This document shows positions 4,444 through 11,419 of a DNA stretch of 64,000 bases, piece by piece. The notes under the pieces are model-generated. The model had not been told where the DNA came from. It did not search any database and saw nothing but the letters and a program-made list of their open reading frames with translations. Positions within the stretch are counted from its first letter, which is position 1, and every line of letters starts with the position of its first letter. The position numbers and the translations under genes were made by a program. This DNA comes from Lachnospiraceae bacterium (GTDB taxonomy: Bacteria > Bacillota > Clostridia > Lachnospirales > Lachnospiraceae), in contig JAILHT010000003.1 in assembly GCA_024695665.1 (NCBI GenBank), positions 10,870-74,869 of the forward strand, given 5' to 3'.

Positions 4444-6345
4444 CTAAATATTTAATGATTTTTTCTTGTTCTTTTTCATCTCATACATAGTGTCATCTGC
4501 AAGTTTTATACATTTCTCAATGTCGAATACCTCATCCGGATATACTATGGTTCCTCCGGTTGATATCGTAAGAGGAAAATCTATTTTGTCACTCTCAATG
4601 ATTTCCGAAAGTGACTCCTGCAGTTTCAATTCTATCTCGAGCATCTCCGCTTCGCTCTCACATTTTCCGGTAAGAATAAACTCATCTCCGCCGTATCGTA
4701 TCCCTAACCAATTTTCCGGCAATGTGTTTTTCACGACTTTACCTATAGTCTGGATAGCTTTATCACCCATAAGATGGCCGTATCTGTCATTTATTAGCTT
4801 CATCCTGTCTATATCCATCATAACAAGAGCGCTCAATCCTTTGTTTGTACTGTTTTCAACTATTTTAGGAACCGCCAGATCATTGAATCCGGTTCTGTTA
4901 TATAAACCGGAGACGACATCCGTGTACAGAGCCTCTCTTATCTGTCTGTTCATAAGTTCGATTTTTAAACTCTCATGAACTCTTCCCAACACCTGATTTA
5001 TGGTTCCGTCCCATGATATAAGTTTTCCGTTCATCACAAGATCTATGGAATCGATATACACAGCATAACCGTATATTTTTTCCATGTCGTGTAACGGTGT
5101 AAAAAGGTATGAATGTGGTCTTTTCGATGCCTTTTCATCAAACGGCAACAACTCATATCTGCCTATTTTTTTGACGGTCGGCTCCTGAGTATATTTGTCT
5201 ATATATATGCATGTATAACTGTCATATCCCAATGTTGTATCCAAAAACTCATGAGCTCCGATAGAAGTGAAATACTCGTCGGCAATGCAAATAAACTGCT
5301 TCTCGGATGTGACTTCGACGGTATTTGCAACAGTGTACTTCAGATAATCCAGAAAGTCTTCCATAGTGGCTACTTTTCGCACACTTCTGTTCATCTTCCA
5401 AATCTGCCTATCAAATTCCATCCTCTTCATGGAGGACATAAAATTGTTTTTCACAGCCTCATTTCTCTTAGTTTCGAATAAAGTTTTGTGCTTACATCCG
5501 CAACTCTCAGCTATTCGCATACAGCTGTCAAGTTTTTCTCTGAACGGTACTTCCTCGCCATCCATGATTTTGATGAGTTTTTCCATCCCGGCCATTCCAA
5601 GTTCTTTTCCCTTTCTGTCGACCGTTGTAATCGCCGGCATATACTCATCACTGGACTTTATTCTGTCATATCCTGTGACGATACAGTCGTCCGGAACCTT
5701 GAGTCCGAATGCCTCTATAGCACCGCATGCTCCAAAAGCCATCAAATCACTTCCCGCCATGATAGCATCGGGAACCTCACTATGATTTTTCAGGTACATA
5801 GAAACCATATCAAAAGCTTTGTAGTATGACCAAAGACATTGAACTACATCCTGCTCATCCACTCTCTCTCCGACTTCTGCCAATGCTTTATTTATTCCAC
5901 CCAATCTCTGAGTGTTCTCATCTCCGTCAAAACCGGCAAGATAAATAACTTTTCTCACACCATGTACTTCGATAAGATGCTTTGTCAGATTGTACATTCC
6001 TATTTCATTGTCCGTCTCAATCCCGGGGATTCCATCCAGATTCAGGTCCAAGGTAATCGCTTTTGAATTTGTCTCAAGGACCTCTCTTCTTAATTTTTCG
6101 CAAAGATAATCAGAATTTAAAGAAAATGAAAGGATATATACACCGTCAAAATCTTCAAGCTTCGGAAGATTGTATATAGCCCTCTCCCCGATATTTTCCA
6201 TATCGGTATTCTCCCAAAATGCAAAACTGGCAAAATAATACAAATCTATATCATTTTCCCAGGCAACCTTCTCTATTCCTTCCATTATTCCTGATATAAG
6301 TTCATTTCCGGAATAATCTGCAAATACCGCAACTTTTCTTCTCAT
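4444..6345 (-). CDS. diguanylate cyclase: cytoplasmic PBP-type-I (LacI-like sugar-binding fold) sensor domain fused to a canonical GGDEF domain
   Basis: 633 aa with no signal peptide or TM segment. The N-terminal ~290 aa resemble periplasmic-binding-protein-like I folds. The C-terminus carries DIDRMKLINDRYGH and RYGGDEF. Confidence 0.8.
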   Translation of the reverse strand: MRRKVAVFADYSGNELISGIMEGIEKVAWENDIDLYYFASFAFWENTDMENIGERAIYNLPKLEDFDGVYILSFSLNSDYLCEKLRREVLETNSKAITLDLNLDGIPGIETDNEIGMYNLTKHLIEVHGVRKVIYLAGFDGDENTQRLGGINKALAEVGERVDEQDVVQCLWSYYKAFDMVSMYLKNHSEVPDAIMAGSDLMAFGACGAIEAFGLKVPDDCIVTGYDRIKSSDEYMPAITTVDRKGKELGMAGMEKLIKIMDGEEVPFREKLDSCMRIAESCGCKHKTLFETKRNEAVKNNFMSSMKRMEFDRQIWKMNRSVRKVATMEDFLDYLKYTVANTVEVTSEKQFICIADEYFTSIGAHEFLDTTLGYDSYTCIYIDKYTQEPTVKKIGRYELLPFDEKASKRPHSYLFTPLHDMEKIYGYAVYIDSIDLVMNGKLISWDGTINQVLGRVHESLKIELMNRQIREALYTDVVSGLYNRTGFNDLAVPKIVENSTNKGLSALVMMDIDRMKLINDRYGHLMGDKAIQTIGKVVKNTLPENWLGIRYGGDEFILTGKCESEAEMLEIELKLQESLSEIIESDKIDFPLTISTGGTIVYPDEVFDIEKCIKLADDTMYEMKKNKKKSLNI

Positions 6346-10360: not shown

Positions 10361-10364
10361 GGCT

Positions 10365-10400
10365 AAAAAAGCCGAATAGGAGTTTTGTCTCCTTTTCGGC
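10365..10400 (-). terminator. rho-independent terminator of the flagellin-like gene
   Basis: Stem GCCGAA..GGAG / CTCC..TTCGGC followed on the minus strand by UUUUUU (A run 10365-10370 on plus). Confidence 0.7.
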
Positions 10401-10441
10401 CCTAAATAATACATGAATCCGTATGTATAAGATTATGTGTG

Positions 10442-11212
10442 TTAAATTAACATTGAAAAAGTTTTTCTTGCCTTTTCCTCTTCGTCTTTCTGCTCTTGTC
10501 TCTGCTGCATAAGGGAATATGCCATAAGAACTTCCTGCTTCTTCCTCTCCTCCACAGCCTGAGGATAATCCAAATCCTCAATCTGAGAGATTGCCGCTGT
10601 CGAATAATACGCCGAAGAACTATTTACATTCATTGCATATTCAAGTGCATTGTACTGAGCTCCCATAGAGGCTCTGCTGCTTGTTACCATCTCAAGCGCA
10701 TCATCTATCGTAGATATATCAAAATCTCCTGTAACATCAAAATCTGCTATGCCAAGAGCTTCCAAAGTAGCATCTGCGGTTGAAACGGTTGTTGTAGAAC
10801 CTTCCGCATCGGTTGCAATCTCGTAATCCGTATCTGTTCCGTCAAGCAATGTGTGAGTATTGTAGGTGGTCTGAGATGCCACATCTGCTATGCCCTGCTT
10901 GAGCTGATCTATCTCATCCTGTATAGCCTGAAGATCGGAATCACTGAGCAGTGCAGAATTTGATGCCTGAAGTGCAAGCTCTCTGATTCTCTGAAGATAC
11001 TCTGTTATTGAAGCTGCCGCAGAATCCGAAATATTAAGCATATCCTGCGCTGAAGCCATATTGTCCGTTCCGACATTTAGACCGTTTACATATGCGTTTT
11101 CTTCTTCTACGATTGAAAGTCCTGCAGCATCATCCGCTGCCGAATTGATACGACTTCCGCTTGCTAAAGATGCGTAACTTCCGTATGAACTTATGCTCGA
11201 TATTCCACTCAT
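10442..11212 (-). CDS. short flagellin-like protein with conserved D1 segments and shortened/divergent D0 termini
   Basis: 256 aa. SRINSAADDAAGLSI, LQRIRELALQASN and DEIDQLKQGI match the flagellin N-domain. SSRASMGAQYNALEYA matches the C-domain. The N-terminus is ~15-20 aa shorter than usual flagellins, and the C-terminal helix is highly charged (QQRQEQKDEEEKARK). Confidence 0.75.
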   Translation of the reverse strand: MSGISSISSYGSYASLASGSRINSAADDAAGLSIVEEENAYVNGLNVGTDNMASAQDMLNISDSAAASITEYLQRIRELALQASNSALLSDSDLQAIQDEIDQLKQGIADVASQTTYNTHTLLDGTDTDYEIATDAEGSTTTVSTADATLEALGIADFDVTGDFDISTIDDALEMVTSSRASMGAQYNALEYAMNVNSSSAYYSTAAISQIEDLDYPQAVEERKKQEVLMAYSLMQQRQEQKDEEEKARKTFSMLI

Positions 11213-11255
11213 AATAATCCTTTCTTAATTGTTGCAGACTATAACCATGATAGGT

Positions 11256-11287
11256 AAAAAAGGAAGCATCTCTGCCGTGATGCTCCC
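11256..11287 (-). terminator. intrinsic terminator acting as the riboswitch expression platform
   Basis: Minus strand reads GGGAGCAUC-ACGGCAGA-GAUGCUUCC-UUUUUU: a 9-bp stem with one G-U pair plus U6. It lies 18 nt after the aptamer and 43 nt before the flagellin-like ATG. Confidence 0.75.
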
Positions 11288-11305
11288 TTACAATTCTTGT
11301 CTAAA

Positions 11306-11369
11306 CTGCAACTGGCTGCCATCATCAGGCCCTATAGCTTTGCGTCACAAGCTTTCGCTTGCTTTGCCG
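11306..11369 (-). promoter_or_regulatory. c-di-GMP-I (GEMM-I) riboswitch aptamer
   Basis: Minus strand reads CGGCAAAGCAAGCGAAAGCUUGUGACGCAAAGCUAUAGGGCCUGAUGAUGGCAGCCAGUUGCAG. It shows P1 CGGCAA/UUGCAG, a hairpin capped by a GAAA tetraloop, the hallmark GACGCAAAGC junction, and a second helix ending AGCCAGUUGC. The order and spacing match Vc2 (GGCAAACC..GAAA..GGGACGCAAAGCC..). Confidence 0.8.
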
Positions 11370-11390
11370 ATTAACATTTATTTCTCCTTT

Positions 11391-11419
11391 AAAATATAAT
11401 GCAAATCCCTATAAGTCAA
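11391..11419 (-). promoter_or_regulatory. sigma-A-type promoter of the riboswitch/flagellin-like unit
   Basis: Minus strand reads TTGACT (11419-11414), a 15-17 nt spacer, then a TATATT/TATTTT block (11398-11391). No sigma-28 (TAAA-N15-GCCGATAA) motif appears in this orientation. Confidence 0.5.

Follow-up and report, generated by a model that had tools for sequence, protein, structure and literature searches.

A gene for a short flagellin-like protein, located in a 64,000-nucleotide stretch of the genome of a Lachnospiraceae bacterium, belongs to a widespread and conserved protein family that has kept the D1 domain of flagellin and has lost its canonical D0 termini. The short flagellin is probably an accessory protein of flagellated cells. 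The stretch, hereafter the window, comprises positions 10,870 to 74,869 of contig JAILHT010000003.1 in GenBank assembly GCA_024695665.1, a 2.59-Mb draft of 161 contigs that is 90.8% complete. An initial annotation of the window had viewed the gene as a stand-alone, D0-degenerate paralogue and as the output of a cyclic di-GMP (c-di-GMP) riboswitch. We found that the paralogue is not a one-off but belongs to a family, and we found that the riboswitch aptamer is real in this genome and in one close relative but is not a property of the family.

A flagellin without canonical D0 termini

The product was described in the initial annotation as a 256-residue protein carrying the signature blocks of flagellin D1, and the translation, the Pfam matches and all of the listed motifs agree with this description. 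Both flagellin domains are present above their gathering thresholds. Flagellin_N (PF00669) covers residues 15-128, equivalent to positions 27-139 of a 139-position profile, with 88.9 bits (cut-off 26.6), and Flagellin_C (PF00700) covers residues 167-241, positions 2-78 of 86, with 30.9 bits (cut-off 23). A fold search returned flagellins only, which together with the two domains places the protein within the flagellin superfamily. Two canonical proteins served for comparison, a flagellin of the same genome, encoded on contig C90, and one of 270 residues from a sister genome. In these the Flagellin_N match runs from profile position 1 to 138 (144-152 bits) and the Flagellin_C match from 2 to 86 (87-101 bits), whereas the Flagellin_C match ends at positions 68-81 in the relatives of the short protein.

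The differences are concentrated at the two termini. Using phmmer against flagellins in the PDB, residue i of the query was aligned to residue i+14 in both Bacillus subtilis Hag and the Roseburia hominis flagellin, and to approximately i+16 in Gram-negative flagellins, with homology ending near query residue 235. The N-terminus is rich in Ser, Gly and Tyr and is 14-18 residues shorter than in canonical flagellins, a shortening that had been proposed in the initial annotation and that is evident from the Pfam, phmmer and alignment offsets. An in-frame stop lies four codons 5' of the ATG, giving an open frame of 260 amino acids; with only four upstream codons open, the short N-terminus is real and not an artefact of start-codon choice. 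The canonical paralogues start with MKINHN or MVVQHN and place about 33 residues before the LSSG motif, compared with 15 in the short protein, which has no complete N-terminal D0 helix of the filament type (profile positions 1-26, with an M-x-I-N-H-N start). At the other end the last ~20 residues are charged and rich in Lys and Glu, as had also been noted initially, with a tail, QRQEQKDEEEKARKTFSMLI, that replaces the usual QANQ..VLSLLQ; the hydrophobic end of a filament flagellin (QANQ.PQ.VLSLLQ type) is missing. The first half of the C-terminal helix retains the canonical hydrophobic pattern.

The protein thus consists of a disordered Ser/Gly/Tyr-rich tail (residues 1-14), a D1 region (~15-212) and a C-terminal helix with a charged end (218-255). 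The D1 motifs are kept, including LQRIRELA.QA, and so is the most conserved segment of D1, ASGKRINSAADDAAGL, which we take to correspond to the segment of Salmonella FliC that is recognised by the export gate. To place the termini within the variation of the group we compared 12 sister genomes. Their canonical flagellins start with M(V/K/R)(V/I)(Q/N)HN and end with VLSLL(Q/G) or LQLLQ, and nearly all of the 27 full-length canonical sequences show one of these endings or a close variant. Exactly one match in each sister genome starts at Flagellin_N profile position 5-38, and it does so with a lower score. The termini of the short protein therefore fall outside the canonical range of both the same genome and its sisters, contrary to a possibility that the initial annotation had left open.

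The altered D0 is also seen in the structure predictions, all of which are models of monomers. Using AlphaFold2 and a 61-sequence alignment of the family, we obtained a predicted local distance difference test (pLDDT) score above 90 over most of residues 40-200 in D1. Residues 1-26 were disordered, with a pLDDT below 50, and the C-terminal helix (218-255) scored 51-72. The control, a canonical 270-residue flagellin from a carrier genome (19 aligned sequences), was modelled with an N-terminal D0 helix at residues 2-31. The best Foldseek matches were filament flagellins, including those of R. hominis (9hpz), Kurthia (6t17) and B. subtilis, which argues for a true flagellin fold. In the models, then, the fold of D1 is canonical and the D0 pair is not. 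With the D0 helix at the N-terminus and the hydrophobic stretch at the C-terminus both replaced, the protein would be unable to form the D0 coiled coil by which subunits are locked into the inner tube of the filament.

Hag, 9hpz and 6t17 are D0-D1 filament flagellins that resemble the short protein in fold, in their similar length and in the D1 motifs. They differ from it in that the short protein is 14-16 residues shorter at the N-terminus and has no D0 helix, and in that its last ~20 residues are unrelated and charged. Its gene, in addition, is single-copy and has no SigD promoter, and its central region is conserved and not variable. In canonical flagellins the central region is normally a variable surface. 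Within the short family the central beta-hairpin region is conserved to the same degree as the D1 helices (mean frequency of the top residue 0.65) and contains a nearly invariant motif, ATLEALGIADFDVTGDFD.

A conserved family in flagellated Lachnospiraceae

A protein search with the short flagellin returned thousands of flagellin matches, of which the best 120 were 53-77% identical to the query and, with two exceptions (271 and 316 residues), 250-260 residues long. We found the short flagellin in 27 of 201 sampled Lachnospiraceae genera, in exactly one copy each. A scan of species representatives added 80 loci, which came from assemblies of rumen, rabbit, mouse and other gut samples and from a few cultured strains, among them Lachnospiraceae bacterium XBB2008, AC2012 and JLR.KK009, and after de-duplication 106 distinct members of 246-270 residues remained. 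The unusual termini are shared across the family. The N-terminus follows the pattern M-S-x-I-S-G-(S/G/N/Y-rich)-Y-x-x-L-A-S-G-K-R-I-N-S-A-A-D and the C-terminus the pattern E-D-L-D-Y-P-x-A-x-x-E-x-K-K-x-E-x-L-x-x-Y-x-L-x-M-Q-K-K-x-Q-E-x-E ... (L/F)F. In a maximum-likelihood tree of 53 short and 28 canonical flagellins from the same genomes, the short members were monophyletic on a long branch with a support of 100/100.

The family is under strong purifying selection. The ratio of nonsynonymous to synonymous substitution rates (dN/dS) between close pairs was 0.008-0.10, with a value of ~0.10 for the window gene and its ortholog. Decay or drift, which the initial annotation had allowed for, is rejected by these ratios and by reading frames that are intact in more than 100 genomes.

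The distribution of the gene follows that of the flagellum. FlhA was detected in 108 of the 201 genera, and the short flagellin was carried by 27 of these and by none of the 93 FlhA-negative genera (Fisher p = 1.3e-8, a value that ignores shared ancestry). Outside the Lachnospiraceae, the 399 Clostridia genomes sampled yielded a single convincing member, which belongs to a different bacterial family. Conserved and derived from flagellin, the short protein thus depends on a flagellar apparatus being present. A different atypical flagellin of ~270 residues, which begins with MFVKSNGSLLNSFAKLTKNK and ends with NKSMLVSARLNNEGINMVINKWLL, was seen at two loci (L168 and L169) of another Clostridia family (f44); its D0 termini may have been altered independently.

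All NCBIfam matches were below their cut-offs, and no curated model in that collection separates the short family. The name 'flagellin FliC5' that is attached to some relatives was discarded as a lead, as it is an automatic transfer from Bdellovibrio gene names. We searched the literature for c-di-GMP riboswitches before Lachnospiraceae flagellins and for flagellins with truncated D0, and found no paper on the family. While non-filament flagellin paralogues as such are already known, a conserved Firmicute clade that combines deletion of the N-terminal D0 with a charged C-terminal end and with what appear to be sigma-A-type promoters is new relative to the literature searched.

The identification of the family bears on how flagellins are counted. 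Flagellins from Lachnospiraceae figure prominently among the antigens and TLR5 ligands of gut and rumen microbiota, and current 'flagellome' surveys count every protein with Flagellin_N/C as a filament subunit. A short, single-copy clade present in approximately a quarter of the flagellated Lachnospiraceae genera should be counted and tested separately.

Promoters distinct from those of filament flagellins

The promoter and CsrA assignments that follow are pattern matches. All three canonical flagellin genes of this genome, and 21 of 32 in the 12 sister genomes, are preceded by a SigD promoter of the form TAAA(G)-N-CCGATAT. The corresponding pattern (TAAA-N-CCGATA) was found in none of 102 upstream regions of the short family, in which a bare CCGATA occurred seven times, and the CCGATAT -10 element is likewise absent from the promoter region of the short flagellin gene in the window. 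The contrast between canonical and short genes is strong (p ~1e-18, a figure that ignores shared ancestry). An exact TATAAT was present in 60 of the 102 family regions instead, and about half of the family genes have a good TTGAxx-17-TATAAT promoter, mostly 35-130 nucleotides (nt) from the ATG.

The leaders also differ, although to a lesser extent. The three canonical genes of this genome carry the GGA-loop hairpins typical of CsrA-controlled leaders, and no such hairpin was found in the leader of the short flagellin gene. Under a loose criterion GGA hairpins were present in 24 of 32 canonical leaders compared with 42 of 104 short-family leaders, a modest difference that we treated as no more than suggestive. 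The combination of a late-class SigD (sigma-28) promoter and a CsrA-type leader that marks the filament flagellins is thus missing from the short gene. Judged by its promoters, the short flagellin is not expressed as a late flagellar gene and is regulated unlike the filament flagellins.

A c-di-GMP-I riboswitch confined to one lineage

The initial annotation had proposed a monocistronic unit with its own promoter, riboswitch and terminator, and all of the parts were found (Table 1). As read from these predicted elements, the short flagellin gene is a monocistronic unit in which promoter, aptamer, attenuator, coding sequence and terminator follow one another. The aptamer, the sole c-di-GMP-I copy in the genome, lies on the strand of the gene, scores above its gathering threshold and is accompanied by an expression platform.

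Table 1. Predicted elements of the short flagellin transcription unit, in window coordinates (MFE, minimum free energy).
Feature	Position	Strand	Basis
Sigma-A-type promoter, TTGACT-17-TATTTT	11391..11419	(-)	Consensus scan, 9/12 matches
c-di-GMP-I (GEMM-I) aptamer	11304..11378	(-)	Rfam RF01051, 60.5 bits (gathering 35), full-length
Predicted antiterminator, 11330-11320 pairing with 11282-11274	11274..11330	(-)	ViennaRNA, folds of the nascent leader
Attenuator, intrinsic terminator hairpin and U-run	11253..11289	(-)	Terminator scan, 11 pairs with 5 G-C, then TTTTTACC
Shine-Dalgarno sequence AAAGGA, 5 nt 5' of the ATG	11218..11223	(-)	Read from sequence
Short flagellin-like coding sequence, 256 amino acids	10442..11212	(-)	Translation, all motifs of the initial annotation present
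Intrinsic terminator closing the unit	~10362..10403	(-)	14-pair hairpin and UUUUUU; MFE -22.7 kcal/mol, z = -3.8

The attenuator hairpin proper (11289-11260 on the minus strand) sits between the aptamer and the ATG. In folds of the nascent leader the antiterminator forms before the 3' strand of the terminator is made, and its distal arm, 11282-11274, is the 5' strand and loop of that terminator. A ligand-bound aptamer would sequester 11330-11320 and so allow the terminator to form, which predicts an OFF switch. On the basis of these folds, production of the protein would be restricted to low c-di-GMP, the condition of the motile state.

A second instance of the arrangement was found in a Lachnospiraceae metagenome-assembled genome (L033), whose protein is 77% identical to that of the window and whose gene lies in the same order, nrdD-gene-aspS-nrdG-htrA. 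This locus has a TTGACA/TAAATT-type promoter at the equivalent place and an equivalent terminator hairpin with a U-run. The aptamer core is identical, the GAAA-capped hairpin differing by a single compensatory pair change, and the antiterminator pairing is also present despite a differing terminator stem and loop. The L033 aptamer (5736-5810) was best matched by the c-di-GMP-I-GGC model, with 52.7 bits and under the gathering score of 59 for that model. Because the core is identical to the canonical aptamer of the window, we treated this match as competition between related models of one clan and not as a sign of altered specificity. The L033 leader further contains an extra perfect hairpin (GTTGCATAGGAAATC...GATTTCCTATGCAAC), and ~130 nt separate its terminator from the ATG.

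Elsewhere in the family the aptamer was not detected. Rfam scans of 26 family loci from other genera gave no c-di-GMP-I aptamer, a sensitive aptamer scan of five loci was positive in L033 only, and a core-motif regular expression applied to 132 loci found the aptamer in the window and in L033 only. We therefore rejected the riboswitch as a family trait, as more than 100 other family loci are without it. By these scans it is a lineage-specific local rewiring, or addition, in this genome and one close relative. We take this local capture as a sign that the dose of the protein counts when a cell chooses between a motile and a sessile state.

The closest parallel is a c-di-GMP-I riboswitch of Clostridioides difficile, Cd1, which lies in the leader of flgB and uses OFF logic to couple low c-di-GMP to motility. 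In both cases a class I c-di-GMP aptamer is followed by an intrinsic terminator and precedes a flagellum-related gene in a member of the Clostridia, and the OFF logic tying low c-di-GMP to motility, predicted here from folds, would be shared. The two differ in that Cd1 controls an early flagellar operon, whereas here a single accessory flagellin-like gene in one small lineage is downstream of the switch.

Genes coding for GGDEF or GGDEF-EAL proteins lie within a few kilobases of the short flagellin gene in the window (4444-6345), in L033 (11813-12780) and in an unrelated family locus, L036 (11026-12771), a proximity that may be due to chance. In the lineage of the window the nearby GGDEF gene encodes a periplasmic-binding-protein-like sensor fused to GGDEF.

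Possible functions of the short flagellin

The explanation that we tentatively favour is that the short flagellin is a non-polymerising, flagellin-like protein exported via the flagellar apparatus. This reading draws on the dependence on flagella, the lack of the terminal helices, the expression outside the late-gene class and the retention of ASGKRINSAADDAAGL, the presumed export-gate segment. Under it the gene would be expressed independently of the SigD late-gene programme, the protein would be handed to the flagellar type III export apparatus, and it would leave the cell in soluble, non-polymerising form, comparable to FlaC of Campylobacter and the flagellin-homologous proteins of Vibrio. 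In this genome and its nearest relative the c-di-GMP-I OFF switch would limit the protein to the motile state at low c-di-GMP.

The short family shares several features with these proteins, having no D2/D3, lying apart from the filament genes and being found in carrier genera that are FlhA-positive in 27 cases out of 27. FlaC of Campylobacter jejuni and the Campylobacterales is a secreted, FliS-dependent, non-filament flagellin that is bound by FliS and not by FliW (PMC5466977, PMC4863622). Like the short flagellin, it is a stand-alone paralogue of ~250 residues without D2/D3 that needs the flagellar apparatus. FlaC, however, is described as carrying D0-D1 (PMC5466977), whereas in the short family the D0 helix at the N-terminus and the hydrophobic end at the C-terminus are gone. 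FlaC also comes from another phylum, and secretion has been shown for FlaC, while for the short flagellin it is our proposal. Vibrio FlaE and FlaF are expressed, excreted through the flagellin channel, not found in the filament and active in the biofilm matrix (PMC6692518). They too are extra flagellin-like genes outside the filament; they differ in being full-size homologues from Gram-negative sheathed flagella, for which D0 degeneration is unreported.

Several observations weigh against export. The last residues of B. subtilis Hag (V299, L300 and R304) are needed for secretion dependent on FliS and FlhA (PMC6070490), and as this is the part replaced in the short family, its export by the canonical chaperoned route may be impaired. 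Unlike the short family, both FlaC and the Vibrio flagellin-homologous proteins are said to retain D0-D1. We looked for a dedicated chaperone and found no extra FliS, carriers and non-carriers both having two. A housekeeping or regulatory function in the cytoplasm would agree equally well with the sigma-A promoter and with the location between rplL and rpoB that is seen in some clades. Lastly, thermodynamic folding is the sole source of the predicted OFF polarity.

Such a cytoplasmic role is the main rival explanation, although we consider it doubtful. The short flagellin would here be a mimic that, being neither exported nor polymerised, titrates FliW and/or FliS through its D1, a flagellin turned regulator of the FliW-CsrA and/or FliS-FlhA checkpoint that tunes the CsrA-controlled translation and the export of the canonical flagellins. 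With its own level set by the sigma-A promoter, and here also by c-di-GMP, the output of real flagellin would follow a housekeeping promoter and, in this lineage, the second messenger. Strict single-copy occurrence suits a regulator, the family promoters are not of the SigD type, and the altered C-terminal end may block hand-over to FliS and FlhA. The genome has FliW, and the CsrA-type GGA hairpins present in its canonical leaders and absent from that of the short gene would be in keeping with this role, although across genomes the hairpin difference is modest. In our own alignment most family members hold Asn at the position aligned with Hag N255, but the window protein has Tyr; we assigned this equivalence from what we take to be the role of N255 in Hag. 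The protein made in the motile state would, if the predicted OFF switch is correct, be a brake on flagellin synthesis, which is counter-intuitive. Of the Hag regions protected by FliW, 50-72 and 240-260 lie in the retained D1, and N-terminal Hag fragments suffice for FliW binding (PMC6070490), but another protected part, 11-34, is truncated or replaced in the short protein.

We think it unlikely that the short flagellin is a minor structural subunit at the end of the filament, such as a terminator or a cap- or junction-proximal layer, which would bind the lattice by means of D1 and the initial half of its C-terminal helix and so manage without a full D0. The strict co-occurrence with flagella, the strong conservation of D1 including the central beta-hairpin region, and the hydrophobic pattern kept in that half of the helix would all suit a subunit, and the predicted OFF switch would co-express it with motility. 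Against this, all axial flagellar proteins known to us assemble via terminal D0 helices, and the short protein has a charged C-terminal end and lacks the D0 helix at its N-terminus; the gene, moreover, is outside the SigD regulon and not near flagellar genes, and FlgL-like genes of ~500 amino acids are already present in the sister genomes. That the gene encodes an ordinary filament flagellin, varying within the normal range, or is a pseudogene in decay, is effectively excluded. Passing both Pfam thresholds, and being named 'flagellin' or 'flagellin FliC5' in databases in the case of its relatives, are what the protein has in common with the ordinary case, but none of the 32 canonical flagellins examined has termini like its own, which fall beyond their range, and a long, fully supported branch separates it from them; the intact frames and low dN/dS speak against a pseudogene.

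If exported, the short flagellin would give FlaC and the Vibrio flagellin-homologous proteins a counterpart in Gram-positive bacteria, and if it is released, an intact TLR5-type D1 motif (LQRIRELALQ) without the D0 signalling site may make it a 'silent' or competing TLR5 ligand of gut commensals. If cytoplasmic, it would feed into the FliW-CsrA-FliS flagellin checkpoint as a new input.

Genomic context and other flagellar genes

The gene lies between nrdD, upstream, and aspS-nrdG, downstream, an order that is also annotated in L033. The initial annotation had reported this position and the lack of flagellar neighbours correctly: we searched for FlhA, FliW, FliS, FlgK and other flagellins and found none on the contig of the window. 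These genes are spread over contigs C57, C53, C90, C42, C105 and C48, and the genome as a whole encodes FlhA, FlgK and a second FlgK-like protein, FliW, two FliS and at least three canonical flagellins.

Across the family the gene stands alone in contexts that vary and are for the most part non-flagellar, with nrdD and aspS here, rplL-rpoB in other genomes, and PFK, alginate lyase or integrase genes in yet others. When the open reading frames within 3 kb on either side of 106 loci were clustered, no conserved partner gene emerged; the commonest neighbour was found at 12 of the 106 loci and was clade-specific. In a Roseburia-labelled clade (L038 6001-6771; L060, L067 and L115) the short flagellin gene sits between rplL and rpoB, within secE-nusG-rplKAJL-rpoBC, an unusual and presumably highly transcribed site for a flagellin-like gene. 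At L087 and 11 related loci from mouse-gut Lachnospiraceae a GT2-type glycosyltransferase gene lies upstream. Downstream in this clade, on the opposite strand, is a gene of ~475 amino acids beginning with MATIDTAYHYYLSTYAK, which may be related to a 431-residue gene near the short flagellin gene of L038 that has a weak FliD_C match. The L087-clade neighbours may point to a link with flagellin glycosylation or the cap region.

FlgL (HAP3) was considered as an identity for the short flagellin and rejected. The FlgL model TIGR02550 matched it in two stretches of 53.5 and 44.4 bits, far below the cut-off of 127.2, flgK lies elsewhere, on contig C42, and is thus no neighbour of the gene, and the separate FlgL-like Flagellin_N genes of the sister genomes have full N-termini. 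No gene in the draft assembly reaches the cut-off of this model. On C42 (156-2547, minus strand) FlgK, a frame of 577 amino acids, is followed by the second FlgK-like gene, which runs off the end of the contig; this gene may be the equivalent of FlgL, or the equivalent may be missing from the draft.

Every flagellated genome tested, this one and 24 other Lachnospiraceae, has two FliS proteins, one scoring ~120-145 bits and the other ~38-81 bits. In the present genome one is encoded on C53 (3596-3934), by a flagellin of the MVVQHN class, and the other on C90 (3763-4077), directly downstream of a flagellin of the MKINHN class. This pairing suggests two classes of flagellin, each with its own chaperone.

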